Assembly: GCF_013315695.1 (NCBI RefSeq)
Contig: NZ_CP054353.1
DNA: 64,000 bases
Reading direction: 5' to 3' (one strand)
From: Escherichia coli
Lineage (GTDB): Bacteria; Pseudomonadota; Gammaproteobacteria; Enterobacterales; Enterobacteriaceae
Each line of letters begins with the position of its first letter. Positions within the stretch are counted from its first letter, which is position 1. Shown in pieces: positions 3,306 to 63,407 of this stretch. Position numbers and translations under genes: made by a program. Under the pieces are notes generated by a model. It was not told the origin of the DNA. It saw nothing but the letters and a program-made list of their open reading frames with translations, and made no database searches.

Positions 3306-3583
3306 AAACCTGTAGCAGGATCAAAAGAGTGGCGGGAAGCGTGGCAAAAACGGGCTTTTGCTCACATTTCAAATGGTTATAAACATATTTATATAGCGAT
3401 TAATTCGCCAGAGATATTTCTGCTGGTTTGTTTTCTCATCAGAATTTAACACTAAAAGAGCAGGTAAAATTATCTGAATGTTCTTTAAGTTATTCATAAA
3501 GCAAATTAATAAATCTGATGAATATGTTAACCTTCAGCGACATCATCGGTGAAAACCTATAAATGAAGAAGGAAAGCAAAAAA

Positions 3584-4072
3584 ATGAAGACCATTCTACC
3601 TGCAGTATTGTTTGCCGCTTTCGCCACCACTTCCGCCTGGGCGGCAGAAAGCGTCCAGCCGCTGGAAAAAATCGCACCTTATCCACAAGCTGAAAAAGGC
3701 ATGAAGCGTCAGGTGATTCAGTTAACTCCGCAAGAAGATGAATCTACCCTGAAAGTAGAACTGTTAATCGGTCAGACGCTGGAAGTCGATTGCAATTTGC
3801 ATCGTCTCGGCGGGAAGCTGGAAAGCAAAACGCTGGAAGGCTGGGGCTATGATTATTATGTCTTTGATAAAGTTAGCTCGCCGGTTTCCACGATGATGGC
3901 CTGCCCGGATGGCAAGAAAGAGAAGAAATTTGTCACCGCGTATCTGGGCGATGCCGGAATGCTGCGTTATAACAGCAAGCTGCCGATCGTGGTGTATACG
4001 CCAGACAATGTGGATGTGAAGTACCGCATCTGGAAGGCGGAAGAGAAAATTGACAACGCGGTTGTTCGCTAA
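3584..4072 (+). CDS. eco: ecotin, periplasmic serine protease inhibitor
   Basis: ORF 3563..4072; start placed at internal ATG 3584 ([10 protein letters not shown]... signal peptide) to give the 162-aa ecotin I recall. Confidence 0.9.
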
Positions 4073-4089
4073 ACTACTGTGAAGTGCTG

Positions 4090-4216
4090 CAACCCGTAGG
4101 CCGAATAAGGCGGTTACGCTGCATCCGACATCTAACGCCCGAGCCGGTTGCCTGATGCGACGCTGACGCGTCTTATCAGCATACGCCACATCCGGCAAAC
4201 CATGCCGGATGTGGCA
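4090..4216. repeat. REP/BIME cluster (GCCGGATG / CTTATC-type palindromic units) between convergent eco and mqo
   Basis: Three imperfect palindromic units resembling the REP consensus read in sequence. Confidence 0.7.
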
Positions 4217-4221
4217 CATCA

Positions 4222-5880
<1,659 letters not shown>

Positions 5881-12042: not shown

Positions 12043-12197
12043 TACAAGGGAACTTTTTAAGATTATTGCGGAATGGCGAAATAAGCACCTAACATCAAGC
12101 AATAATAATTCAAGGTTAAAATCAATAACTTATTCTTAAGTATTTGACAGCACTGAATGTCAAAACAAAACCTTCACTCGCAACTAGAATAACTCCC

Positions 12198-12290
12198 GCT
12201 ATCATCATTAACTTTATTTATTACCGTCATTCATTTCTGAATGTCTGTTTACCCCTATTTCAACCGGATGCCTCGCATCCGGTTTTTTTT
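12198..12290 (+). ncRNA. micF: MicF antisense sRNA (represses ompF translation)
   Basis: Sequence GCTATCATCATTAACTTTATTTATTACCGTCATTCATTTCTGAATGTCTG... ending in hairpin plus T8, matching micF as I recall it, divergent from ompC. Confidence 0.85.
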
Positions 12291-15944: not shown

Positions 15945-16030
15945 CCTGTAGGCCAGATAAGACGCGTTAGTGTCTTATCTGGCATTTGCACTGAATGCCA
16001 GATGCGGCGTAAACGCCTTATCCGTCCTAC
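15945..16030. repeat. REP-like palindromic units between convergent rcsB and rcsC
   Basis: GATGCGGCGTAAACGCCTTATCCG-type units read in sequence. Confidence 0.6.
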
Positions 16031-18876
16031 GATTCCCGCGATTTCCTGACCCTCTCGGCATATACCGTCAGCGTCTGTTTTATCACATCCAGCGTTACCG
16101 GCTTCGACAGGCAGCTGTCCATACCGGACTCCAGACACCGCTGCTTCTCTTCAGCCAACGCATTAGCAGTTACTCCGATTACCGGCAACGTCAGTCCCAA
16201 CTGACGAATGCGTTGCGTCAAGCGGTAACCATCCATATTTGGCATGTTGACGTCGCTAAGCACGATATCAATATGATTCTTGCTAAGTACATTAAGCGCA
16301 TCGACGCCATCATTCGCGGTTTTACATTGATAACCCAACGATCCCAACTGATCTGCCAGCAGACGCCGGTTAATCGGATGATCATCCACGACCAGAATCA
16401 TCATATCGTCGTTATCGCTGACCGCTTTGTCCGTCGACGGCAGAGCGTTAGCAGGATCATCGCTCTCCATCTCGATCAAATAAATACGCGCCAACAATGC
16501 CGGTAGCTCATGCGGTGCAGCCACACTGTGTACCCACTCCCCTGGCGCTTTCTCCAGCGGAATACCAATATGGCGACGACAGAAGGTCACTACCGCTCTA
16601 CCCTGCCATTTTTTGCTCACTACCTCGTCAGTGATTAACACATCTTCGGGAGTCGGTTCCTGCCCTTCGTATGTTGTAACGACGATGCCGCTGCGCTGCA
16701 AACTGGTTTCCAGGAACTGACAGAGCGACGCATTGCGGACCGCCAGCCAGCAGCGTTTACCACTCAACCCTTCCACGCCTTTTTTCTGCGGGTACTGAGC
16801 GCCGTACAACGGAATACGCACGGTAAACTGGCTGCCTATTCCCGGTTCTGAATCTACCGAGATGTCGCCGTCCATCATGCTGATCAGTTTTTCACAAATC
16901 GCCAGACCCAGACCGGTCCCCTGGAAGTTTCGCTGTACGCCCGTTCCGACCTGGAAGAAGGGATCAAACAAGCGCACGACTTCTTTCGCCGGAATCCCCA
17001 CGCCGGTATCGCGAACACGGATAGAGAGATAATCGCCATCAGCGCGAACTTGCAAAACTATACAGCCGGTATCGGTGAATTTTATGGCGTTACTCAACAG
17101 GTTGGAGATGACCTGCTGTAAACGCATCGGGTCGCCATTTAAGGCCACTGGCACATCCGGTTCAATAAAGCAGTACAAGCCTAACTGCTTGCGTACCACC
17201 AGCGGTAAATAGTTGGCGGTGATGTGGTTCATCACTTCACGCGGTGAAAACTCACGCGGTTCGATCTTCAACTGTTCTGATTCAATTTTCGAGAAATCGA
17301 GAATATCGCTGATAATTTTCAACAACAGGCTGGAAGAGTTGTTCATTGCCGTCACCAGACGATCGACGCCTTTCGGTAACTCTTTGGTTTGCAACAGATC
17401 CAGGTTACCGATAATGCCATACAGCGGCGTTCGCAGCTCATGACTGACGGTGGCAAGGAACATCGATTTTGACTGGCTCGCCTGTTCCGCTGCTTGTGCC
17501 ATCTCCTGCAACGACTCTTCCATCTTCACGCGCGAAGAAACATCCACCAGCACACAAATGGCCACGTTTTCATTACGATAGCGCGAATGGACGAAGCTGA
17601 TTTGCAGATTGGTATTGTTGCTGGTCAGGACATCAACAAAATTGACCTGCTGCCCACAGATAATTTGTGTCAGCCGTTGGCGATCCTCATGCGTAAGCAT
17701 ATTGAGATAGGTATGCGCCAGTTCGTTACTTAAAATATTGACGCCATCAGCGGTACGCAATATGCAGATACCCACTGGCGCGGAGGCGACAATCTTGCGA
17801 TTAAACTGCTCATGTTCTTCCAGTCGCAGGGCGTCGCTTTCCGCCGGAATGAAAATACGCCGCTCGTACATCCGCGCGAGAGTAAACAATGCAGCTCCGG
17901 CAAGCACATTCAGCAAAATTGCGTTAAGGATCAACATGCGAATGCGTTCCAGCACCTTATCAACCGGCACCGAATACACGATGCTTAGCGATGAGGGTGG
18001 CAGATTTTTCTTCAGCACCAGCTCCCGGAACCCTTCCGTATAGCCAAACCAGGAGCGTTCCTGCATCCAGCGAGGATCGCCCTTAATTTTGCTTTCTGGT
18101 CCGGTAAGCGAAATCAGGGTATGACCATTTTCATCAAGAATGGTAACCCCCATCGGCAACGTACCAGGCAAGAAAAAGTTCTCCATCCGGATGGTCTGCT
18201 CGACACCCAAAAGCGCCTGCAACCGGTTCGCCAGATAAACTGGCGTCAAGGCGTAAAAATACCCGACGCCAGGGCGCGGACCTTCGCTGATCCAGTAGAG
18301 GTTACTGCCGCTATCATCTTGTGGTGCATTTCGATATTTATTAATGCGTTCATGCAACGCTTTTAGCGCGGTATCGCGTTCCACTGGCATATCACGCAGA
18401 CCGAAATTGGCCATGCAGAGGTTATCGCTGCCGATTAAAAATACCCGGTTGAGATCGTAAGCCGCAGAAAAATTATCGCGCCAGTAGCGCATAAACCACG
18501 CCAATGACTCCAGAGAACCTCGCCAGGTGTTACTCATTGCGGAACAATCAGAGTCAGCAAACAGCGGTTCAAACGCAGGCACATCCGTCTGCGTTTCTCG
18601 TCCACGCGGGGAAAGCACACCGTTTTCTGCCGATAAGCGATTTTCGGCGATGTACTTCAGCTCTTTCATCACATCAGAGGTGCGTTGAATAAAGCGCTGA
18701 GCCTGATCGGAACTCAGATTAAATTCCTGACGAATTTCCGATTCTCGCTGATGTAACGCATTAACGATGTAAAAAACGGATGAAAAAGCAATCAACAGCC
18801 AGAGCACTAACGCCAATGCTCTGAACATGTAGCGCGAGGCTTTCAGGGTTGTACGAAAAGAAGCAAGGTATTTCAA
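16027..18876 (-). CDS. rcsC: hybrid sensor histidine kinase RcsC
   Basis: 949-aa ORF with TM sensor, HisKA/HATPase and C-terminal receiver domain. Confidence 0.9.
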   Translation of the reverse strand: MKYLASFRTTLKASRYMFRALALVLWLLIAFSSVFYIVNALHQRESEIRQEFNLSSDQAQRFIQRTSDVMKELKYIAENRLSAENGVLSPRGRETQTDVPAFEPLFADSDCSAMSNTWRGSLESLAWFMRYWRDNFSAAYDLNRVFLIGSDNLCMANFGLRDMPVERDTALKALHERINKYRNAPQDDSGSNLYWISEGPRPGVGYFYALTPVYLANRLQALLGVEQTIRMENFFLPGTLPMGVTILDENGHTLISLTGPESKIKGDPRWMQERSWFGYTEGFRELVLKKNLPPSSLSIVYSVPVDKVLERIRMLILNAILLNVLAGAALFTLARMYERRIFIPAESDALRLEEHEQFNRKIVASAPVGICILRTADGVNILSNELAHTYLNMLTHEDRQRLTQIICGQQVNFVDVLTSNNTNLQISFVHSRYRNENVAICVLVDVSSRVKMEESLQEMAQAAEQASQSKSMFLATVSHELRTPLYGIIGNLDLLQTKELPKGVDRLVTAMNNSSSLLLKIISDILDFSKIESEQLKIEPREFSPREVMNHITANYLPLVVRKQLGLYCFIEPDVPVALNGDPMRLQQVISNLLSNAIKFTDTGCIVLQVRADGDYLSIRVRDTGVGIPAKEVVRLFDPFFQVGTGVQRNFQGTGLGLAICEKLISMMDGDISVDSEPGIGSQFTVRIPLYGAQYPQKKGVEGLSGKRCWLAVRNASLCQFLETSLQRSGIVVTTYEGQEPTPEDVLITDEVVSKKWQGRAVVTFCRRHIGIPLEKAPGEWVHSVAAPHELPALLARIYLIEMESDDPANALPSTDKAVSDNDDMMILVVDDHPINRRLLADQLGSLGYQCKTANDGVDALNVLSKNHIDIVLSDVNMPNMDGYRLTQRIRQLGLTLPVIGVTANALAEEKQRCLESGMDSCLSKPVTLDVIKQTLTVYAERVRKSRES

Positions 18877-19555
18877 AGGGGCGAAGCTCCGCCTCAGGTG
18901 ACCGATGGAGTGTGGTTAAGGTAGCGGTAAAAGCGTGTTACCGCAATGTTCTCTCTTCTCTGGAATATGATACACCGCCGAGAAATCATCACCTTAACCT
19001 CTGATAATCGTCATATACCGGACAAGACTAGTGGATTTCAGCATGCATTATATGAAGTGGATTTATCCACGCCGCTTACGCAATCAAATGATTCTGATGG
19101 CAATCCTGATGGTCATTGTCCCAACGCTTACTATTGGTTATATCGTAGAAACAGAAGGACGTTCAGCAGTCTTATCTGAAAAAGAGAAAAAACTTTCTGC
19201 CGTGGTCAACCTGCTTAATCAGGCGCTAGGCGATCGCTATGATCTCTACATCGACTTACCGCGTGAGGAGCGTATCCGCGCATTAAATGCAGAACTTGCC
19301 CCCATTACCGAAAATATCACTCACGCCTTCCCTGGCATCGGCGCTGGTTATTACAACAAAACGCTGGATGCGATAATCACCTACGCGCCTTCAGCGCTAT
19401 ATCAGAATAATGTGGGCGTTACCATTGCCGCAGATCACCCTGGTCGCGAAGTCATGCGTACAAATACCCCTTTGGTTTATTCAGGCAGGCAGGTGCGCGG
19501 CGATATTTTGAATTCAATGATCCCCATTGAGCGTAATGGTGAAATCCTCGGCTAT

Positions 19556-19564
19556 ATCTGGGCC
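19556..19564. repeat. target-site duplication ATCTGGGCC (left copy)
   Basis: Identical 9-mer immediately flanks both IS1 ends. Confidence 0.9.
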
Positions 19565-19579
19565 GGTAATGACTCCAAC

Positions 19580-20083
19580 TTATTGATAGTGTTTTATGTT
19601 CAGATAATGCCCGATGACTTTGTCATGCAGCTCCACCGATTTTGAGAACGACAGCGACTTCCGTCCCAGCCGTGCCAGGTGCTGCCTCAGATTCAGGTTA
19701 TGCCGCTCAATTCGCTGCGTATATCGCTTGCTGATTACGTGCAGCTTTCCCTTCAGGCGGGATTCATACAGCGGCCAGCCATCCGTCATCCATATCACCA
19801 CGTCAAAGGGTGACAGCAGGCTCATAAGACGCCCCAGCGTCGCCATAGTGCGTTCACCGAATACGTGCGCAACAACCGTCTTCCGGAGCCTGTCATACGC
19901 GTAAAACAGCCAGCGCTGGCGCGATTTAGCCCCGACATAGCCCCACTGTTCGTCCATTTCCGCGCAGACGATGACGTCACTGCCCGGCTGTATGCGCGAG
20001 GTTACCGACTGCGGCCTGAGTTTTTTAAGTGACGTAAAATCGTGTTGAGGCCAACGCCCATAATGCGGGCTGTTGCCCGGCAT
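19580..20083 (-). CDS. insB: IS1 transposase InsB reading frame (expressed as InsAB' fusion by -1 frameshift)
   Basis: 167-aa ORF matching IS1 InsB. Confidence 0.9.
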
Positions 20084-20277
20084 CCAACGCCATTCATGGC
20101 CATATCAATGATTTTCTGGTGCGTACCGGGTTGAGAAGCGGTGTAAGTGAACTGCAGTTGCCATGTTTTACGGCAGTGAGAGCAGAGATAGCGCTGATGT
20201 CCGGCGGTGCTTTTGCCGTTACGCACCACCCCGTCAGTAGCTGAACAGGAGGGACAGCTGATAGAAACAGAAGCCAC
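20002..20277 (-). CDS. insA: IS1 InsA (transposition inhibitor / N-terminal part of transposase)
   Basis: 91-aa ORF with zinc-finger Cys motif (CPSCSA...CSHC) matching IS1 InsA. Confidence 0.9.
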
Positions 20278-20332
20278 TGGAGCACCTCAAAAACACCATC
20301 ATACACTAAATCAGTAAGTTGGCAGCATCACC

Positions 20333-20341
20333 ATCTGGGCC
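20333..20341. repeat. target-site duplication ATCTGGGCC (right copy)
   Basis: Identical 9-mer immediately flanks both IS1 ends. Confidence 0.9.
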
Positions 20342-21642
20342 AATGAATTAACCGAAGATATTCGCCGCCAGGCCTGGAAAATGGATGTGAGGATTATCAT
20401 TGTGCTCACCGCCGGTTTGCTGATAAGCCTGCTGTTGATTGTCCTTTTCTCCCGTCGCCTGAGCGCCAATATAGATATCATCACCGATGGCCTCTCGACT
20501 CTGGCACAAAATATTCCCACTCGATTACCACAATTGCCCGGTGAAATGGGGCAAATCAGTCAGAGTGTTAACAACCTCGCCCAGGCACTGCGTGAAACGC
20601 GGACACTTAACGATCTGATTATTGAAAACGCTGCCGATGGCGTCATTGCCATTGACCGCCAGGGTGATGTAACCACCATGAACCCGGCAGCAGAAGTCAT
20701 TACTGGCTATCAACGTCATGAACTGGTAGGGCAGCCTTACTCCATGTTGTTCGACAATACTCAGTTCTACAGTCCAGTACTGGATACGCTGGAACATGGC
20801 ACCGAACATGTAGCACTGGAGATCAGTTTTCCAGGCCGTGACCGCACCATTGAACTCAGTGTCACGACCAGTCGTATTCATAACACGCACGGTGAAATGA
20901 TAGGTGCTTTGGTGATTTTCTCTGATTTAACTGCCCGCAAAGAAACCCAGCGCCGCATGGCGCAAGCAGAACGCCTCGCTACACTGGGTGAGCTGATGGC
21001 TGGCGTGGCGCATGAAGTACGTAATCCGCTAACGGCTATTCGTGGTTATGTACAGATCTTGCGCCAACAAACCAGCGACCCAATACATCAGGAATATCTG
21101 TCCGTAGTACTCAAAGAAATCGATTCAATTAACAAAGTTATTCAGCAATTGCTCGAATTTTCACGTCCACGCCACAGTCAATGGCAACAAGTCAGCCTCA
21201 ATGCATTGGTTGAAGAAACTCTGGTACTGGTACAAACCGCCGGCGTACAAGCGCGGGTCGACTTCATAAGCGAACTGGATAATGAATTAAGCCCGATTAA
21301 CGCCGATCGTGAACTGCTCAAACAGGTACTACTGAATATCCTGATCAATGCCGTCCAGGCTATCAGTGCACGAGGGAAAATTCGCATTCGAACCTGGCAA
21401 TACAGCGACTCACAACAGGCCATTTCGATAGAGGACAACGGCTGTGGCATTGATCTCTCGCTGCAAAAAAAGATCTTCGATCCCTTTTTCACCACCAAAG
21501 CCTCAGGAACCGGGCTTGGTCTGGCGTTAAGTCAACGCATCATTAATGCCCATCAGGGTGATATTCGCGTCGCCAGTTTGCCGGGCTACGGCGCAACCTT
21601 CACGCTTATTTTACCGATCAACCCGCAGGGAAATCAGACTGT

Positions 21643-23028
21643 ATGACTGCTATTAATCGCATCCTTATTGTGGATGATGAAGATAATGTTCGCCGTATGC
21701 TGAGCACCGCTTTTGCACTACAAGGATTCGAAACACATTGTGCGAACAACGGACGCACAGCATTACACCTGTTTGCCGATATTCACCCTGACGTGGTGTT
21801 GATGGATATCCGCATGCCAGAGATGGACGGCATCAAGGCACTCAAGGAGATGCGCAGCCATGAGACACGGACACCCGTTATTCTGATGACGGCCTATGCT
21901 GAAGTGGAAACCGCCGTCGAAGCGCTACGCTGCGGGGCCTTCGACTATGTTATTAAACCGTTTGATCTCGATGAGTTGAATTTAATCGTTCAGCGCGCTT
22001 TACAACTCCAGTCAATGAAAAAAGAGATCCGTCATCTGCACCAGGCACTGAGCACCAGCTGGCAATGGGGGCACATTCTCACCAACAGCCCGGCGATGAT
22101 GGACATCTGCAAAGACACCGCCAAAATTGCCCTTTCTCAGGCCAGCGTCTTGATTAGTGGTGAAAGCGGCACCGGGAAAGAGTTGATTGCCAGAGCGATT
22201 CACTACAATTCGCGGCGGGCAAAGGGGCCGTTCATTAAAGTCAACTGCGCGGCACTGCCGGAATCGTTGCTCGAAAGTGAACTGTTTGGTCATGAAAAAG
22301 GTGCATTTACTGGTGCACAAACCTTGCGTCAGGGATTATTTGAACGTGCCAACGAAGGTACTCTGCTCCTCGACGAAATTGGTGAAATGCCGCTGGTACT
22401 GCAAGCCAAATTACTACGCATTCTGCAGGAACGGGAATTTGAGCGGATTGGCGGCCATCAGACCATAAAAGTTGATATCCGCATCATTGCTGCCACCAAC
22501 CGCGACTTGCAGGCAATGGTGAAAGAAGGCACCTTCCGTGAAGATCTCTTTTATCGCCTTAACGTTATTCATTTAATACTGCCGCCTCTGCGCGATCGCC
22601 GGGAAGATATTTCCCTGTTAGCTAATCACTTTTTGCAAAAATTCAGTAGTGAGAATCAGCGCGATATTATCGACATCGATCCGATGGCAATGTCACTGCT
22701 TACCGCCTGGTCATGGCCGGGAAATATTCGAGAGCTTTCCAACGTTATTGAACGCGCCGTCGTGATGAATTCAGGCCCGATCATTTTTTCTGAGGATCTT
22801 CCGCCGCAGATTCGTCAGCCAGTCTGTAATGCTGGTGAAGCAAAAACAGCCCCTGTCGGTGAGCGTAATTTAAAAGAGGAAATTAAACGCGTCGAAAAAC
22901 GCATCATTATGGAAGTGCTGGAACAACAAGAAGGAAACCGAACCCGCACTGCTTTAATGCTGGGCATCAGTCGCCGTGCATTGATGTATAAACTCCAGGA
23001 ATACGGTATCGATCCGGCGGATGTATAA
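21643..23028 (+). CDS. atoC: sigma54-dependent response regulator AtoC (NtrC family)
   Basis: 461-aa ORF with receiver domain, AAA+ Walker A (GESGTGKE), GAFTGA motif and C-terminal HTH; start overlaps atoS stop (ATGA). Confidence 0.9.
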   Translation: MTAINRILIVDDEDNVRRMLSTAFALQGFETHCANNGRTALHLFADIHPDVVLMDIRMPEMDGIKALKEMRSHETRTPVILMTAYAEVETAVEALRCGAFDYVIKPFDLDELNLIVQRALQLQSMKKEIRHLHQALSTSWQWGHILTNSPAMMDICKDTAKIALSQASVLISGESGTGKELIARAIHYNSRRAKGPFIKVNCAALPESLLESELFGHEKGAFTGAQTLRQGLFERANEGTLLLDEIGEMPLVLQAKLLRILQEREFERIGGHQTIKVDIRIIAATNRDLQAMVKEGTFREDLFYRLNVIHLILPPLRDRREDISLLANHFLQKFSSENQRDIIDIDPMAMSLLTAWSWPGNIRELSNVIERAVVMNSGPIIFSEDLPPQIRQPVCNAGEAKTAPVGERNLKEEIKRVEKRIIMEVLEQQEGNRTRTALMLGISRRALMYKLQEYGIDPADV

Positions 23029-23039
23029 CGCCAAAACTT

Positions 23040-23080
23040 GCTATGCAGAAATTTGCACAGTGCGCAATTTTCTGCATAGC
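23040..23080. promoter_or_regulatory. AtoC binding site: inverted repeat GCTATGCAGAAA-N17-TTTCTGCATAGC upstream of atoD
   Basis: Perfect 12-bp inverted arms read directly; spacer itself is near-palindromic (TTGCACAGTGCGCAA). Confidence 0.7.
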
Positions 23081-23162: not shown

Positions 23163-23178
23163 TGGCACTCCCCTTGCT
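23163..23178 (+). promoter_or_regulatory. sigma54 (-24/-12) promoter of atoDAEB: TGGCAC-N5-TTGCT
   Basis: Matches the sigma54 consensus TGGCAC-N5-TTGCW; located about 45 bp upstream of atoD start and about 100 bp downstream of the AtoC palindrome. Confidence 0.75.
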
Positions 23179-23223: not shown

Positions 23224-23886
23224 ATGAAAACAAAATTGATGACATTACAAGACGCCACCGGCTTCTTTCGTGACGGCATGACCATCATGGTGGGCGGATT
23301 TATGGGGATTGGCACTCCATCCCGCCTGGTTGAAGCATTACTGGAATCTGGTGTTCGCGACCTGACATTGATAGCCAATGATACCGCGTTTGTTGATACC
23401 GGCATCGGTCCGCTCATCGTCAATGGTCGAGTCCGCAAAGTGATTGCTTCACATATCGGTACCAACCCGGAAACAGGTCGGCGCATGATTTCTGGTGAGA
23501 TGGACGTCGTTCTGGTGCCGCAAGGTACGCTAATCGAGCAAATTCGCTGTGGCGGAGCTGGACTTGGTGGTTTTCTCACCCCAACTGGTGTCGGCACCGT
23601 CGTAGAGGAAGGCAAACAGACACTGACACTCGACGGTAAAACCTGGCTGCTCGAACGCCCGCTGCGCGCCGACCTGGCGCTCATTCGCGCTCATCGTTGC
23701 GACACACTTGGCAACCTGACCTATCACCTTAGCGCCCGCAACTTTAACCCCCTGATAGCCCTTGCGGCTGATATCACGCTGGTAGAGCCAGATGAACTGG
23801 TCGAAACCGGCGAGCTGCAACCTGACCATATTGTCACCCCTGGTGCCGTTATCGACCACATCATCGTTTCACAGGAGAGCAAATAA
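23224..23886 (+). CDS. atoD: acetate/acetoacetate CoA-transferase alpha subunit
   Basis: 220-aa ORF matching AtoD; operon atoDAEB. Confidence 0.9.
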
Positions 23887-24536
23887 TGGATGCGAAACAA
23901 CGTATTGCGCGCCGTGTGGCGCAAGAGCTTCGTGATGGTGACATCGTTAACTTAGGGATCGGTTTACCCACAATGGTCGCCAATTATTTACCGGAGGGTA
24001 TTCATATCACTCTGCAATCGGAAAACGGCTTCCTCGGTTTAGGCCTGGTCACGACAGCGCATCCAGATCTGGTGAACGCTGGCGGACAACCGTGCGGCAT
24101 TTTACCCGGCGCAGCCATGTTTGATAGCGCCATGTCATTTGCGCTAATCCGTGGCGGTCATATTGATGCCTGCGTGCTCGGCGGTTTGCAAGTAGACGAA
24201 GAAGCAAACCTCGCGAACTGGGTAGTGCCTGGGAAAATGGTGCCCGGTATGGGTGGCGCGATGGATCTGGTGACCGGGTCGCGCAAAGTGATCATCGCCA
24301 TGGAACATTGCGCCAAAGATGGTTCAGCAAAAATTTTGCGCCGCTGCACCATGCCTCTCACTGCGCAACATGCGGTGCATATGCTGGTTACTGAACTGGC
24401 TGTCTTTCGTTTTATTGACGGCAAAATGTGGCTCACCGAAATTGCCGACGGGTGTGATTTAGCCACCGTGCGTGCCAAAACAGAAGCTCGGTTTGAAGTA
24501 GCTGCCGACCTGAATACGCAACGGGGTGATTTATGA
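23886..24536 (+). CDS. atoA: acetate/acetoacetate CoA-transferase beta subunit
   Basis: 216-aa ORF matching AtoA; start overlaps atoD stop. Confidence 0.9.
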   Translation: MDAKQRIARRVAQELRDGDIVNLGIGLPTMVANYLPEGIHITLQSENGFLGLGLVTTAHPDLVNAGGQPCGILPGAAMFDSAMSFALIRGGHIDACVLGGLQVDEEANLANWVVPGKMVPGMGGAMDLVTGSRKVIIAMEHCAKDGSAKILRRCTMPLTAQHAVHMLVTELAVFRFIDGKMWLTEIADGCDLATVRAKTEARFEVAADLNTQRGDL

Positions 24537-25855
24537 TTGGTCGCATATCGCGTTTTATGACGCGTTTTGTCAGCCGGTGGCTTCCCGATCCACTGATCTT
24601 TGCCATGTTGCTGACATTGCTAACATTCGTGATCGCGCTTTGGTTAACACCACAAACGCCGATCAGCATGGTGAAAATGTGGGGTGACGGTTTCTGGAAC
24701 TTGCTGGCGTTTGGTATGCAGATGGCGCTTATCATCGTTACCGGTCATGCCCTTGCCAGCTCTGCTCCGGTAAAAAGTTTGCTGCGTACTGCCGCCTCCG
24801 CCGCAAAGACGCCCGTACAGGGCGTCATGCTGGTTACTTTCTTCGGTTCAGTCGCTTGTGTCATCAACTGGGGATTTGGTTTGGTTGTCGGCGCAATGTT
24901 TGCCCGTGAAGTCGCCCGCCGAGTACCCGGTTCTGATTATCCGTTGCTCATTGCCTGCGCCTACATTGGTTTTCTCACCTGGGGTGGCGGTTTCTCTGGC
25001 TCAATGCCTCTGTTGGCTGCAACACCGGGCAACCCGGTTGAGCATATCGCCGGGCTGATCCCGGTGGGCGATACTCTGTTCAGTGGTTTTAACATTTTCA
25101 TCACTGTGGCGTTGATTGTGGTGATGCCATTTATCACCCGCATGATGATGCCAAAACCGTCTGACGTGGTGAGTATCGATCCGAAACTACTCATGGAAGA
25201 GGCTGATTTCCAAAAGCAGCTACCGAAAGATGCCCCACCATCCGAGCGGCTGGAAGAAAGCCGCATTCTGACGTTGATCATCGGCGCACTCGGTATCGCT
25301 TACCTTGCGATGTACTTCAGCGAACATGGCTTCAACATCACCATCAATACCGTCAACCTGATGTTTATGATTGCGGGTCTGCTGCTACATAAAACGCCAA
25401 TGGCTTATATGCGTGCTATCAGCGCGGCAGCACGCAGTACTGCCGGTATTCTGGTGCAATTCCCCTTCTACGCTGGGATCCAACTGATGATGGAGCATTC
25501 CGGTCTGGGCGGACTCATTACCGAATTCTTCATCAATGTTGCGAACAAAGACACCTTCCCGGTAATGACCTTTTTTAGTTCTGCACTGATTAACTTCGCC
25601 GTTCCGTCTGGCGGCGGTCACTGGGTTATTCAGGGACCTTTCGTGATACCCGCAGCCCAGGCGCTGGGCGCTGATCTCGGTAAATCGGTAATGGCGATCG
25701 CCTACGGCGAGCAATGGATGAACATGGCACAACCGTTCTGGGCGCTGCCAGCACTGGCAATCGCCGGACTCGGTGTCCGCGACATCATGGGCTATTGCAT
25801 CACTGCCCTGCTCTTCTCCGGCGTCATTTTCGTCATTGGTTTAACGCTGTTCTGA
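24533..25855 (+). CDS. atoE: short-chain fatty acid transporter AtoE
   Basis: 440-aa polytopic membrane protein; operon position. Confidence 0.9.
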   Translation: MIGRISRFMTRFVSRWLPDPLIFAMLLTLLTFVIALWLTPQTPISMVKMWGDGFWNLLAFGMQMALIIVTGHALASSAPVKSLLRTAASAAKTPVQGVMLVTFFGSVACVINWGFGLVVGAMFAREVARRVPGSDYPLLIACAYIGFLTWGGGFSGSMPLLAATPGNPVEHIAGLIPVGDTLFSGFNIFITVALIVVMPFITRMMMPKPSDVVSIDPKLLMEEADFQKQLPKDAPPSERLEESRILTLIIGALGIAYLAMYFSEHGFNITINTVNLMFMIAGLLLHKTPMAYMRAISAAARSTAGILVQFPFYAGIQLMMEHSGLGGLITEFFINVANKDTFPVMTFFSSALINFAVPSGGGHWVIQGPFVIPAAQALGADLGKSVMAIAYGEQWMNMAQPFWALPALAIAGLGVRDIMGYCITALLFSGVIFVIGLTLF

Positions 25856-25885: not shown

Positions 25886-27070
25886 ATGAAAAATTGTGTC
25901 ATCGTCAGTGCGGTACGTACTGCTATCGGTAGTTTTAACGGTTCACTCGCTTCCACCAGCGCCATCGACCTGGGGGCGACAGTAATTAAAGCCGCCATTG
26001 AACGTGCAAAAATCGATTCACTACACATTGATGAAGTGATTATGGGTAACGTGTTGCAAGCCGGGCTGGGGCAAAATCCGGCGCGTCAGGCGCTGCTAAA
26101 AAGCGGACTAGCTGAAACGGTGTGCGGATTCACGATCAACAAAGTGTGCGGTTCAGGTCTGAAAAGCGTGGCGCTTGCTGCACAGGCGATTCAGGCAGGT
26201 CAGGCACAGAGCATTGTGGCGGGGGGTATGGAAAATATGAGTTTAGCACCCTACTTACTCGATGCAAAAGCACGCTCTGGTTATCGTCTTGGAGACGGAC
26301 AGGTTTATGACGTAATCCTGCGCGATGGCCTGATGTGCGCCACCCATGGTTATCATATGGGGATTACCGCCGAAAACGTGGCTAAAGAGTACGGAATTAC
26401 CCGTGAAATGCAGGATGAACTGGCGCTACATTCACAGCGTAAAGCTGCAGCCGCAATTGAGTCCGGTGCTTTTACAGCCGAAATCGTCCCGGTAAATATT
26501 GTCACCCGGAAGAAAACCTTCGTCTTCAGTCAAGACGAATTCCCGAAAGCGAATTCAACGGCTGAAGCGTTAGGTGCATTGCGCCCGGCCTTCGATAAAG
26601 CAGGAACAGTCACCGCCGGGAACGCGTCTGGTATTAACGACGGTGCTGCCGCTCTGGTGATTATGGAAGAATCTGCGGCGCTGGCAGCAGGCCTTACCCC
26701 CCTGGCTCGCATTAAAAGTTATGCCAGCGGTGGCGTGCCCCCCGCATTGATGGGTATGGGGCCAGTACCTGCCACGCAAAAAGCGTTACAACTGGCGGGG
26801 CTGCAACTGGCGGATATTGATCTCATTGAGGCTAATGAAGCATTTGCCGCACAGTTCCTTGCCGTTGGGAAAACCCTGGGCTTTGATTCTGAGAAAGTGA
26901 ATGTCAACGGCGGGGCCATCGCGCTCGGGCATCCTATCGGTGCCAGTGGTGCTCGTATTCTGGTCACACTATTACATGCCATGCAGGCACGCGATAAAAC
27001 GCTGGGGCTGGCAACACTGTGCATTGGTGGTGGCCAGGGAATTGCGATGGTGATTGAACGGTTGAATTAA
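25886..27070 (+). CDS. atoB: acetyl-CoA acetyltransferase (thiolase II)
   Basis: 394-aa ORF with thiolase active-site regions (NKVCGSG..., C-terminal CIGGGQG). Confidence 0.9.
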
Positions 27071-36569: not shown

Positions 36570-39197
36570 TTATTCTTCTTCTGGCTCGTCGTCAACGTCC
36601 ACTTCCGGAGCGATTTCATCGTCTCCTTCCGCGGCACTGCCATCGATGGTGTCCAGATCTTCCTCGTCAACCGGTTCAGCAACACGTTGCAGACCCACTA
36701 CGTTTTCATCTTCCGCAGTACGGATGAGGATCACGCCCTGGGTGTTACGGCCCACGATGCTGATTTCTGAAACGCGAGTACGTACCAGCGTACCGGCATC
36801 GGTGATCATCATGATCTGGTCGCAGTCATCTACCTGCACCGCGCCAACCACTAAACCGTTACGTTCGGTAACCTTGATGGAGATAACCCCTTTCGTCGCA
36901 CGCGACTTGGTTGGGTATTCCGCCACTGCGGTACGTTTACCATAACCGTTCTGCGTTGCGGTGAGGATTGCGCCATCACCACGAGGTACGATCAGAGAGA
37001 CGACTTTATCGCCTTCGCCTAAACGAATACCGCGAACACCGGTGGTGTTGCAGCCCATCGCACGGACAAAAGACTCTTTAAAGCGCACCACTTTACCTTC
37101 AGCGGAGAACAGCATTACTTCATCTTCGCCACTGGTCAGGTCAACGCCGATCAGCTCATCGCCTTCAACCAGTTTGATCGCCACTTTACCGGCGGTACGC
37201 AGACGGTTGAATTCGGTGAGGACAGTTTTCTTCACGGTACCGTTAGCGGTCGCCATGAAGACTTTCACGCCTTCTTCAAACTCGGTCACCGGCAGGATCG
37301 CAGTGATACGTTCGTCCTGCTCCAGCGGCAGCAGGTTGACGATCGGACGACCACGCGCGCCACGAGTAGCTTCTGGCAACTGGTAAACCTTCATCGAATA
37401 GACGCGACCACGGCTGGAGAAGCACAGAATATGGTCGTGCGTGTTCGCCACCAGCAGTCGGTCGATAAAGTCTTCTTCTTTAATACGTGCGGCAGATTTA
37501 CCTTTCCCGCCACGACGCTGCGCTTCATATTCCGAAAGCGGCTGATATTTAACGTAGCCCTGGTGAGAGAGCGTCACGACCACATCTTCCTGGGTGATCA
37601 GATCTTCCAGGTTGATGTCTGCGCTGTTGGCGGTGATTTCAGTACGACGTTTGTCACCGAACTGTTCACGAACCAGCTCCAGCTCTTCGCGGATCACTTC
37701 CATCAGACGATCGGCGCTACCAAGAATACGCAACAGCTCCGCGATCTGATCCAGCAGCTCTTTGTATTCGTCGAGCAGTTTTTCGTGCTCAAGGCCGGTC
37801 AGTTTCTGCAAACGCAGATCCAGAATCGCCTGAGCTTGCTGTTCGGTCAGGTAGTACAGACCATCGCGCACGCCGAACTCTGGCTCCAGCCATTCCGGAC
37901 GCGCAGCATCGTCGCCCGCACGTTCCAGCATCGCGGCAACGTTGCCCAGCTGCCACGGATTAGCAACCAGCGCGGTTTTCGCTTCTGCAGGCGTCGGCGC
38001 ATGACGGATCAGTTCGATGATCGGGTCAATGTTCGCCAGCGCCACGGCTAATGCTTCAAGGATATGAGCACGATCGCGAGCTTTACGCAGTTCGAAAATG
38101 GTACGACGGGTCACCACTTCACGGCGGTGACGAACAAACGCCGCGATGATGTCTTTCAGGTTCATGATCTTCGGCTGACCATGGTGCAATGCCACCATGT
38201 TAATACCGAAAGAAACCTGCAACTGGGTCTGGGAGTAGAGGTTGTTAAGCACAACTTCACCGACCGCATCGCGTTTCACTTCAATCACGATGCGCATACC
38301 GTCTTTGTCAGACTCATCACGCAACGCGCTGATGCCTTCCACGCGTTTTTCTTTTACCAGTTCCGCAATTTTTTCGATCAGGCGAGCTTTGTTCACCTGA
38401 TACGGAATTTCGTGGACGATAATGGTTTCACGCCCGGTTTTGGCGTCAACTTCCACTTCCGCACGGGCGCGGATATACACCTTGCCACGACCGGTACGGT
38501 AAGCTTCTTCAATACCGCGACGACCGTTAATGATTGCCGCCGTCGGGAAGTCCGGCCCCGGGATGTGTTCCATCAGCCCTTCAATGCTGATGTCTTCATC
38601 ATCGATATACGCCAGACAACCGTTGATGACTTCCGTCAGGTTGTGCGGCGGGATGTTGGTTGCCATACCTACGGCGATACCGGAAGAACCGTTCACCAGC
38701 AGGTTAGGAATTTTGGTTGGCATGACGTCCGGAATTTTTTCCGTGCCGTCATAGTTATCAACGAAATCGACCGTCTCTTTTTCGAGATCGGCCATCAGTT
38801 CATGGGCAATTTTCGCCAGACGGATTTCCGTATAACGCATTGCCGCCGCAGAGTCGCCGTCGATGGAACCGAAGTTACCCTGACCGTCTACCAGCATGTA
38901 ACGCAGCGAGAATGGCTGCGCCATACGGACGATCGTGTCATAAACCGCCGAGTCACCATGGGGATGGTATTTACCGATTACGTCACCAACGACACGGGCA
39001 GATTTTTTATAGGCTTTGTTCCAGTCATTGCCTAGTACGTTCATGGCGTAAAGTACGCGACGGTGTACCGGCTTCAGGCCATCTCGGACATCCGGCAGCG
39101 CACGGCCAACAATGACCGACATCGCATAATCCAGATAGGAGCTCTTCAGCTCTTCCTCAATGTTGACCGGTGTAATTTCTCTCGCAAGGTCGCTCAT
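36570..39197 (-). CDS. gyrA: DNA gyrase subunit A
   Basis: 875-aa ORF; active-site Tyr region and QRDR ([11 protein letters not shown]) present; acidic C-terminal tail. Confidence 0.95.
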
Positions 39198-40762: not shown

Positions 40763-41998
40763 TTATTTAGCATGTGAAATAACATTGTCTTTCTGGGCGT
40801 TATCTTTTTTATTATCAATTTTCATTGATAACAAAATAGCTACGGCGATAAAGCAAAGAATCGCCTCAACAATAAATATCCCCGTGGCTCCATAATGTGT
40901 AGAAACATAGCCAAGTGATTTATTGATCAGAAAACCACCCAAACTTGAACAAGAGTTAATAAACGCAATACTGATTGCCAGGCCTGATGGTGAAAGTAAA
41001 GCTGAGGGTAAAGCCCAGTACGGACCGTAATAACTGAGAATGCCTACACCGTATAATGTTAATCCCATCATGCGCAGCGTCATCGAAGGTACAAGTGCGA
41101 TCATTAAAAAACCGCAACCTGCAACCAACATCGGTAGTGCGGCATGCCATTTCCTTTCATTCTTTTTATCGGAATGCCATCCCCATAATGGCATACTGAA
41201 CATCGCGAAAATAAACGGAATACTCATAATCAAACCGACATCGGTATCTGTGAAATCCGATGAAAATCCTTTAACCAACCCCGGTAACCAGTAATTTGCC
41301 GCCAACGCCGCTGCCTGAATAAACATATAAGCAAATGAGAGTTGTAGTAATACTGGATTTTTAATGATTGACAGAAAAGATGCATTTGTATTTTTATTTA
41401 ATGCTGCGGCTTTTTCGTTATCAGAATTAAGTTTATCGACCAATGCGGTGACTTGCGATGGTGTAAGCCAGCGGGCTTTTTCCGGACGATCTGGCAGTAA
41501 ATAAAAGGTCAGCGCCCCCAATAACACCGTAGGAATGCCTTCAATAGCAAAAAGCCAGCGCCATCCTTCATAGTTACCGGTATTCATATGTTCAATAATC
41601 CAACCAGACATTGGTGCCGCCAGCACAGATGCAACTGCGATTGATAACATAAAAAAGCTATTCACTTTTCCACGTTCGCGCGCCGGGAACCAACATGCCA
41701 GGTAGTAAACCATGCCAGGGAAAAACCCCGCTTCAAATATTCCCAAAAAGACCCGAGCGAGCAATATATGCTGGGTGTCTTTGGCAAAGAAAATTAACGT
41801 TGTTACTGTTCCCCAACCAACAATAATGGCGCTAATCCATTTTCTTGCACCTAACTTTTGCAATCCAATACTGCTCGGAGTTTGAAAAATTAAATAGGAC
41901 ACAAAAAATATTGAAGATATATTAGCAAAATCCTCTGGAGTAATACCAAGGGATTCATTCATGCGTAAAGCGGCAAACCCAATATTAACACGATCCAT
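40763..41998 (-). CDS. MFS transporter, anion:cation symporter-like (sugar-acid uptake); 5' end apparently frameshifted, see findings
   Basis: 411-aa ORF with MFS signature (DRVNIGFAA...) ; the expected first about 31 codons are in a different frame (ATG at 42090). Confidence 0.75.
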   Translation of the reverse strand: MDRVNIGFAALRMNESLGITPEDFANISSIFFVSYLIFQTPSSIGLQKLGARKWISAIIVGWGTVTTLIFFAKDTQHILLARVFLGIFEAGFFPGMVYYLACWFPARERGKVNSFFMLSIAVASVLAAPMSGWIIEHMNTGNYEGWRWLFAIEGIPTVLLGALTFYLLPDRPEKARWLTPSQVTALVDKLNSDNEKAAALNKNTNASFLSIIKNPVLLQLSFAYMFIQAAALAANYWLPGLVKGFSSDFTDTDVGLIMSIPFIFAMFSMPLWGWHSDKKNERKWHAALPMLVAGCGFLMIALVPSMTLRMMGLTLYGVGILSYYGPYWALPSALLSPSGLAISIAFINSCSSLGGFLINKSLGYVSTHYGATGIFIVEAILCFIAVAILLSMKIDNKKDNAQKDNVISHAK

Positions 41999-42180
41999 AT
42001 AGTTAAAAAATACAGAATAAATGCTAACGGAATAATCTTCCTTTTCACAATAGAAATGGCATCATACAAATCTTTCTGAGGACTGCTCATTTTGTTTCAC
42101 CTTTTGTGCTTCAATGAATAAGAGTACTACCCGAAGTGGATATTACGTAAAAAATAATCCAGTTCAAAAGGTGATGTGTT

Positions 42181-42266: not shown

Positions 42267-42327
42267 ACACCTTCATTTATAAAATGATTACATATAATGG
42301 GTCAGCAGCTTAATAAGGGGCAAAGGA

Positions 42328-43026
42328 ATGAGAGATAAAGCGAAACGTGACTTAAGTCACATATCAATTGAGATACCAAAATCCGTAACCCAGGTCATCA
42401 AAGAAAAAATCAGGGATATGATAATTCATGGCGATCTCAGTCTTGGGCAACCGATAAGTGAAAATGAACTTTCGAATATTCTGGCGGTAAGTAAAACACC
42501 TATTCGTGAAGCTTTTATTTTACTTAGTCACAATGAAAATCTGATCAATATCATTCCACGCAGCGGAACATTCGTTTTTTCCGTAACAGATAAAGATATT
42601 AATGACCTCATAAAAATGCGAGTAATTCTGGAGCAGGGTGCAATTAGTGAAACAATGGAAAAGAATGCAAACAATGTCATCATTGAACTAAATAGTATAC
42701 TATCAAAATCAGCAAAAATTAATGCCGAGCGCGATACTCAGGCTTATCTTAAACTGGATCATGATTTTCATTATGTGTTTGTTAAATACGCTGATAATAA
42801 ATACATCTCTCAGGCACACCAATTGATATCCGCACGTTTACTTGCTATCCGTTATCGACTGGATTTCACTACGGAATATATCACCAATTCAAATCGTGGC
42901 CATGCGACTATTTTAGATATGCTAAAAAATAATAACGTTGAAGGTGTTTGTAATTTTATTACTCATCACGTAAGTAGTGGATTTACCGAGCGCGCACGAA
43001 AAATTCTCTCGTTATCTACACAGTAA
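42328..43026 (+). CDS. GntR-family transcriptional regulator (N-terminal wHTH, C-terminal FCD-like domain)
   Basis: 232-aa ORF with GntR HTH signature (ISENELSNILAVSKTPIREAF); strongly A/T-ending codon usage. Confidence 0.8.
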   Translation: MRDKAKRDLSHISIEIPKSVTQVIKEKIRDMIIHGDLSLGQPISENELSNILAVSKTPIREAFILLSHNENLINIIPRSGTFVFSVTDKDINDLIKMRVILEQGAISETMEKNANNVIIELNSILSKSAKINAERDTQAYLKLDHDFHYVFVKYADNKYISQAHQLISARLLAIRYRLDFTTEYITNSNRGHATILDMLKNNNVEGVCNFITHHVSSGFTERARKILSLSTQ

Positions 43027-62249: not shown

Positions 62250-63209
62250 ATGACCGAATCAACAACCTCCTCCCCGCATGATGCGGTGTTTAAAACCTTT
62301 ATGTTCACACCCGAAACCGCACGGGATTTTCTGGAAATACATCTACCAGAGCCGCTGCGCAAGCTTTGCAACCTGCAAACTTTACGCCTGGAACCCACCA
62401 GCTTTATTGAAAAAAGTTTACGCGCTTACTACTCGGATGTTTTGTGGTCGGTGGAAACCAGCGACGGTGAAGGCTATATCTACTGCGTGATTGAACATCA
62501 AAGTTCCGCGGAAAAGAATATGGCCTTTCGGCTAATGCGCTATGCCACTGCCGCCATGCAACGTCATCTGGACAAAGGCTATGACAGAGTCCCGCTGGTG
62601 GTACCATTGCTGTTTTATCATGGCGAAACCTCGCCCTACCCGTACTCACTCAACTGGCTGGATGAGTTTGACGATCCGCAACTTGCCCGGCAGTTGTACA
62701 CCGAAGCTTTTCCGTTGGTGGATATCACCATCGTACCTGACGATGAGATCATGCAACATCGGCGTATAGCTCTGCTGGAACTGATTCAAAAGCATATTCG
62801 CGACCGCGATTTAATCGGTATGGTCGACAGGATCACCACGCTTTTGGTTAGAGGCTTCACTAATGACAGCCAGCTACAAACGCTGTTTAATTATCTGCTG
62901 CAATGCGGCGATACCTCCCGTTTCACCCGTTTTATTCAGGAGATTGCCGAACGTTCACCACTACAAAAGGAGAGATTAATGACTATTGCTGAACGGCTGA
63001 GGCAGGAAGGGCATCAAATTGGCTGGCAGGAGGGTAAGATTGAAGGTTGGCAGGAGGGGAAATTGGAGGGTTTGCAGAAAGGCAAAGTAGAAGGTATGCA
63101 TGAACAAGCCATTAAAATTGCCTTGCGCATGCTGGAACAGGGCTTTGAACGTGAGATTGTGCTGGCGACAACCCAACTCACTGATGCTGATATTCCGAAC
63201 TGTTATTAA
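62250..63209 (+). CDS. yfaD: Rpn-family (YhgA-like, transposase_31 / PD-(D/E)XK) recombination-promoting nuclease homolog
   Basis: 319-aa ORF; N-terminal nuclease-like domain and C-terminal repeat module ([25 protein letters not shown]); I recall yfaD being renamed rpnE. Confidence 0.8.
62979..63209 (+). CDS. candidate in-frame internal small protein (RpnS-like C-terminal domain of YfaD) with its own ribosome-binding site
   Basis: Strong SD AAGGAGAG 7 nt upstream of in-frame ATG 62979 ([19 protein letters not shown]...); the same SD and start sequence is duplicated at ypaA. Confidence 0.45.
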
Positions 63210-63221
63210 AAGGAGAGATTA

Positions 63222-63407
63222 ATGACTATTGCTGAACGGCTACGGCAGGAAGGACATCAAATTGGCTGGCAGGAGGGTAAATTAGAAGGCATGCATGAAC
63301 AAGCCATTAAAATTGCCTTGTGCATGCTGGAACAGGGCATTGAGCGTGACCAGGTGCTCGCGGCCACTCAGCTAAGCGAAGCCGATCTGGCAGCGAATAA
63401 CCACTAA
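63222..63407 (+). CDS. ypaA: YpaA, free-standing paralog of the Rpn C-terminal domain
   Basis: 61-aa ORF; first 33 nt including the SD are identical to the internal start region of yfaD. Confidence 0.7.
   Translation: MTIAERLRQEGHQIGWQEGKLEGMHEQAIKIALCMLEQGIERDQVLAATQLSEADLAANNH

Follow-up and report, generated by a model that had tools for sequence, protein, structure and literature searches.

Does the IS1 element lying inside atoS in this Escherichia coli isolate represent a genuine and recent transposition, and what would remain of the response to acetoacetate if the sensor kinase gene has been broken? The gene is located upstream of atoC and atoDAEB and adjoins rcsC, and in this isolate its reading frame is interrupted, being split into ORFs of 200 and 421 amino acids. 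We analyzed the surrounding 64,000 nucleotides (hereafter the window, to which all positions refer unless another genome is named), and compared the locus with complete E. coli genomes, with metagenome and protein collections, and with the literature.

A complete IS1 within atoS

Inspection of positions 19400-20500 gave the following layout on the plus strand: ...GGCTAT and a first copy of ATCTGGGCC, then an element beginning GGTAATGACTCCAACTTATTGATAG and ending CAGTAAGTTGGCAGCATCACC, then a second copy of ATCTGGGCC followed by AATGAA.... The parts of the insertion are:

19556-19564: left copy of the 9-bp target-site duplication, ATCTGGGCC, corresponding to AtoS codons 172-174 (I-W-A) in phase 0
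19565-20332, minus strand: complete IS1 (IS1A type), 768 bp, on the opposite strand to atoS
19565-19587: IRR, GGTAATGACTCCAACTTATTGAT, the left element end on the plus strand
19580-20277, minus strand: InsAB' as a whole, 698 nt
19580-20083, minus strand: insB' reading frame, 167 amino acids
20002-20277, minus strand: insA, 91 amino acids, GTG start, matching the NCBIfam IS1/IS1595 zinc-binding domain and the N-terminal part of NF033558
20020-20026, minus strand: A6C (AAAAAAC) programmed -1 frameshift motif, IS1 positions 307-313
20310-20332: IRL, GGTGATGCTGCCAACTTACTGAT, whose reverse complement is the right element end on the plus strand; the minus-strand reading starts here
20333-20341: right copy of the target-site duplication, ATCTGGGCC, a perfect direct repeat of the left copy

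The terminal inverted repeats, about 23 bp long, are imperfect, with 18 of 23 terminal positions in agreement between IRL and IRR. A -1 shift at AAAAAAC produces an unbroken InsAB' of 232 amino acids, and this fusion scores 245 bits against the NCBIfam model for the IS1 family transposase (NF033558, cut-off 100). Over its full 768 bp the element shows 100% identity to many E. coli copies in complete genomes that PGAP annotates as IS1A family, and in 7,186 records the best match to it reaches 99% or more. The element thus has the length, inverted repeats, frameshift signal, 9-bp duplication and sequence identity of the IS1 family, and both the complete IS1 and the perfect target-site duplication of the original prediction were found exactly as described. 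In size, repeats, insA/insB' arrangement with A6C, 232-residue InsAB' and 9-bp duplication it is no different from the IS1A isoform known from E. coli K-12 and other Enterobacteriaceae; what is new among the genomes searched is the insertion site alone, at atoS codon 174.

The transposase gene is on the same strand as rcsC (16027-18876, minus strand). Any read-out from IS1 (19565-18876, minus strand) would run antisense to the 5' fragment of atoS and towards rcsC, which is pure speculation. Directly past the rcsC stop codon is a naRNA4/CssrE RNA (15951-16027, minus strand), scoring 65.5 bits in Rfam, above the gathering score.

The empty site and the age of the insertion

Each junction of the element was searched as a 300-bp query against 5,426 complete RefSeq E. 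coli genomes, and the flanks were searched separately. Neither junction has a match in this collection, while both flanks (44.2 kb) are matched at about 99.9-100% in five genomes (MSB1_4I, OZ547117, MS 21-1, OZ546925 and OZ546911), none of which carries the insertion. The closest complete genome is that of MSB1_4I (NZ_LR898874.1; human rectal swab, Australia). There the left flank is matched up to 1758442 and the right one from 1758450 onwards, so that the two rejoin over exactly one copy of the 9-mer ATCTGGGCC; the locus is a textbook empty site, and supplies the comparison with an intact allele that had been suggested together with the original prediction. The duplication is more than chance: 9 bp would match at the precise ends of an element with a probability of about 4^-9, and, more telling still, the two flanks overlap by exactly those 9 bp in the near-identical genome NZ_LR898874.1.

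Alignment of the whole window to MSB1_4I revealed only five SNPs in 63,232 bp, in addition to IS1:

9043: ada
10817: ompC
41891: MFS transporter gene
45872: yfaL
57897: glpA-glpT spacer

With the element absent from all five near-identical genomes, and so few substitutions over 63.2 kb in the closest of them, the earlier description of a simple and recent transposition holds.

Several other features of the window were also recorded. A MicF sRNA is encoded upstream of ompC (12197-12290, plus strand; 116.8 bits in Rfam, above the gathering score). The gyrA gene (36570-39197, minus strand) has wild-type S83 and D87, with no quinolone-resistance substitution at these two classical codons. The MFS transporter gene (40763-42090, minus strand) and a gene for a GntR-family regulator (42284-43026, plus strand) are annotated as frameshifted pseudogenes in MSB1_4I. 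An ISNCY-family (yfaD-like) transposase gene adjoins glpC and is followed by a partial copy (62250-63407), arranged as in MSB1_4I; segments of about 80 bp from 62965-63154 are repeated at 63208-63349 with 90-94% identity. No tRNA genes were found in the 64-kb window.

Searches beyond complete genomes were negative as well. The right junction has no match in JGI metagenome contigs, neither of the exact N-terminal fusion proteins (200 and 204 amino acids) occurs in a collection of about 15 billion proteins, and the literature on atoS together with IS1 yielded no report of the codon-174 insertion allele; a paper related to the LTEE mentions, for atoS, parallel S351 substitutions alone. Two sets of apparent carriers were examined and rejected. 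Strain AMSCJX03 gave a match to the left junction with 100% coverage, which consists of two pieces 366 bp apart and belongs to a different IS1 insertion. Contigs encoding the same 421-residue C-terminal ORF proved to have a W186* nonsense mutation and no insertion sequence.

IS1 is a multi-copy repeat, present in 4,970 of the 5,426 complete genomes at a median of 11 places per genome, and is thus the kind of sequence that confuses assemblers. Could the copy in atoS be a wrongly placed repeat, with the gene in fact intact? Misplacement of a repeat would not explain why a full-length element is bordered, precisely at its ends, by an exact 9-bp duplication of its target, or why the flanks fit together perfectly at a relative's empty site; these features together are the signature of transposition. 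Chiefly because of that exact duplication, we consider an assembly artefact extremely improbable. The window itself contains this single IS1 copy and no other long repeat. A Shigella origin of the window, considered in view of the IS1 and the lack of junction matches, was rejected on the strength of that one copy in 64 kb and of the near-identity to E. coli MSB1_4I.

Given that the relatives have the empty site and that the junctions are absent from all 5,426 genomes, we infer from these comparisons that the insertion is a genuine and recent event, younger than the split from the nearest relatives, and restricted to this isolate or else to a very small clone that has not been sampled. The intact ends and ORFs, along with the empty site in relatives, further suggest that this IS1 copy was competent for transposition.

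The interrupted kinase and the downstream circuit

Removal of IS1 and one copy of the repeat restores the AtoS frame, as the original prediction had claimed, and gives a 608-residue ORF starting at 19043. The rebuilt protein scores 998.7 bits against the AtoS equivalog NF008468 (NCBIfam, cut-off 646) and differs from K-12 AtoS by three residue changes (M107T, L160I and Q524R); the same DNA is annotated as atoS in strain MS 21-1, at 100% identity. Its architecture is that expected of AtoS, with a periplasmic domain between the two transmembrane segments:

residues ~16-36: TM1, from hydropathy
residues ~190-212: TM2, from hydropathy
residues 209-259: HAMP, a weak Pfam match (E = 0.0027)
residues 265-369: PAS, Pfam
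residues 389-451: HisKA, Pfam
residues 496-600: HATPase_c, Pfam

Codon 174 is the last before the break point, which is located in the periplasmic domain, 15 residues short of TM2, so that residues 1-174, with TM1 and the periplasmic part, are cut from TM2, HAMP, PAS, HisKA and HATPase_c; the separation of sensing and kinase parts proposed earlier is therefore correct. The gene now consists of two fragments, and a candidate promoter spans the right junction:

19043-19645, plus strand: atoS 5' fragment, codons 1-174 (TM1 and most of the periplasmic domain) plus 26 IS1 codons; predicted product of 200 amino acids
20319-20348, plus strand: weak candidate outward hybrid promoter, TTGGCA in IRL, a spacing of 17 or 18 bp, and AATGAA or ATGAAT in atoS
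20342-21646, plus strand: atoS 3' fragment, codons 175-608 (TM2, HAMP, PAS, HisKA, HATPase_c), without promoter or native start

The stop codon of the 5' fragment (19643-19645) is inside IS1. The earliest in-frame ATG of the 3' fragment is M188 at 20381, which opens the 421-residue ORF, and between that stop and this ATG are about 735 nt of untranslated antisense IS1.

Downstream of the insertion, the circuit is preserved:

21643-23028, plus strand: atoC, intact, 461 amino acids (NF008469, 1004 bits, cut-off 714)
23040-23080: AtoC-binding palindrome, two inverted 20-bp sites, GCTATGCAGAAATTTGCACA and TGCGCAATTTTCTGCATAGC, identical to K-12
23163-23177, plus strand: sigma-54 type -24/-12 promoter of atoDAEB, TGGCACTCCCCTTGC (TGGCAC-N5-TTGC), identical to K-12
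23224-23886, plus strand: atoD, full length
23886-24536, plus strand: atoA, full length
24533-25855, plus strand: atoE, full length
25886-27070, plus strand: atoB, full length

The atoC start overlaps the atoS stop (ATGA, 21643-21646). The spacer between atoC and atoD holds both the 40-bp inverted palindrome, which is an experimentally verified AtoC site (PMC3118216, citing Matta et al. 2007), and the GG-N10-GC (-24/-12) element, upstream of atoD. As neither differs from K-12, the part of the original prediction that placed an intact operator and promoter downstream also stands. The four structural genes are all intact, with 0-5 substitutions each relative to K-12. AtoC differs from its K-12 counterpart only by V400A; it was checked for the constitutive substitution I129S, which is absent, I129 being kept. 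Constitutive atoC(c) mutants (LS5218, carrying I129S) are altered in this circuit as well (PMC5699524), whereas the opposite effect is expected here, in an isolate whose AtoC has I129 and V400A.

The sequence of events that we propose begins with an ordinary IS1 of the IS1A type, which would have transposed into chromosomal atoS after the split from the nearest sequenced relatives, duplicating ATCTGGGCC. The AtoS frame would then end after residue 174 and 26 IS1-encoded residues, giving a 200-residue product that would keep TM1 and the greater part of the periplasmic domain but lack TM2, HAMP, PAS, the phospho-acceptor and the ATPase domain. The 3' part, deprived of promoter, ribosome-binding site and start codon, would follow some 735 nt of antisense IS1 that is not translated; kinase is therefore expected in small amounts or not at all, and whatever is produced would be without the sensing part. 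AtoC, receiving no AtoS-dependent phosphorylation, would not respond to acetoacetate at the intact sigma-54 promoter of atoDAEB, and the isolate would be unable to induce short-chain fatty acid (acetoacetate) catabolism.

The insertion almost certainly inactivates atoS. Since the kinase domains are severed from TM1 as well as from the promoter and start codon, the outcome that we consider most likely (a probability of roughly 85%) is that, as the original prediction soundly proposed, acetoacetate-responsive signalling would be lost and the ato operon would be uninducible; loss of kinase expression and an Ato-negative phenotype would follow. Activation of atoDAEB requires that AtoS phosphorylate AtoC (PMC1784093, PMC3118216), and deletion of atoSC abolishes short-chain fatty acid catabolism (PMC3118216). 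Counting against a complete knockout, the ATG of M188 (20381) could start a TM2-HAMP-PAS-kinase protein of 421 amino acids, and AtoC might be phosphorylated by cross-talk; cross-regulation between two-component systems is mentioned in both PMC3118216 and PMC1784093.

The atoS and atoSC knockouts of K-12 (Keio JW2213, atoS-, and BW28878, an atoSC deletion) serve as non-responding hosts in PMC7618054 and PMC3118216. Unlike these, the present allele arose naturally, by IS1 insertion, in a lineage other than K-12; what it leaves is a 200-residue N-terminal fragment and an intact, presumably unexpressed 3' portion, and it may also be polar on atoC.

Such polarity would add to the knockout itself. 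IS1 is strongly polar in both orientations. If transcription does not reach atoC, AtoC would be depleted and the strain would resemble an atoSC double mutant, with pleiotropic effects on motility, osmotic behaviour and antizyme beyond the lost induction. The end of the atoS frame is also the start of atoC (21643-21646), transcription termination is expected in the roughly 735 nt that are left untranslated after the stop of the 5' ORF at 19645, and a terminator-like hairpin is present on the plus strand within IS1 (20192-20206). The phenotypes of atoSC deletion that such a strain would share have been described (PMC3118216). On the other side, a separate atoC promoter fragment (patoC-lacZ, pCPG6) is active and inducible by putrescine (PMC1784093), and atoC may accordingly have its own transcription, separate from that of atoS, from a promoter downstream of the insertion. 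Depletion of AtoC is a serious possibility, to which we give somewhat less than even odds. The original prediction took neither IS1 polarity nor the separate atoC promoter into account.

Far less probable is a gain of function, in which the IRL junction forms a hybrid promoter. TTGGCA at 20319-20324 in IRL points outward, facing the 3' fragment, and together with flanking atoS DNA would drive both atoC and a 421-residue, sensor-less AtoS from M188; AtoC would be phosphorylated without a signal, and atoDAEB would be expressed constitutively as in atoC(c) strains. IS1 ends are known to form fusion promoters with flanking DNA (PMC9330008, Table 1, citing Prentki et al. 1986), the in-frame ATG at 20381 is available, and a truncated AtoS phosphorylates AtoC in vitro according to unpublished data of the authors mentioned in PMC1784093. 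In the gut, a rewired circuit of this kind would let the strain use butyrate or valerate for growth, as a natural equivalent of atoC(c). However, the candidate -10 sequences AATGAA and ATGAAT are poor, and at the right (IRL) junction no sigma-70 consensus promoter passes a standard scan; a relaxed scan returned the candidate below threshold, with 8 of 12 consensus matches overall. The Shine-Dalgarno context of M188 (CTGGAAAATG) is weak as well, and other natural atoS lesions (the W186* nonsense allele, a deletion and gene absence) are plain losses. We regard both the constitutive operon and the signal-independent kinase behind it as quite unlikely, and loss of inducibility remains the preferred reading.

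Recurrent loss of atoS in E. coli

The rebuilt atoS is matched in 3,930 of the 5,426 complete E. coli genomes, and the whole gene is absent from the other 1,496 (28%); eight genomes have only partial matches. As such, atoS is not a core gene, and the ato regulatory locus is often lost.

Individual lesions are varied. Strain E92 (NZ_CP119734.1), one sampled genome, has ISEc31 inside atoS. In AMSCJX03 (NZ_CP058355.1, giant panda), an independent IS1, 99.1% identical and in the same orientation, is inserted after atoS nucleotide 888 (3517-4284 of the stretch examined). That element abuts a truncated yfaS-like gene with an MG2 domain, and the rest of atoS, atoC, atoDAEB, yfaP and yfaQ are deleted. 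The W186* null allele (TGG to TAG), whose site corresponds to window positions 20375-20377, is found on at least 24 public contigs (Logan and ENA assemblies) and splits atoS into ORFs of 185 and 421 amino acids. These lesions and the cases of gene absence are independent inactivations of the same gene that differ from the present one in position and mechanism, and none has the junctions of this insertion.

Repeated loss of atoS or of the ato genes, by absence, IS1, ISEc31 and nonsense mutation, suggests that the system is dispensable in many niches. The codon-174 insertion is one more example of this recurrent breakage, an ordinary event in which a common insertion sequence has entered a dispensable gene in one isolate; it reveals no new mechanism and opens no new question. 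It is useful as a clonal marker, since it tells the isolate apart from strains as closely related as MSB1_4I and MS 21-1. The isolate is predicted to be unable to induce the catabolism of acetoacetate and short-chain fatty acids, and may resemble atoSC mutants in the secondary phenotypes that have been reported for them, in motility, osmotic sensitivity and cPHB synthesis.
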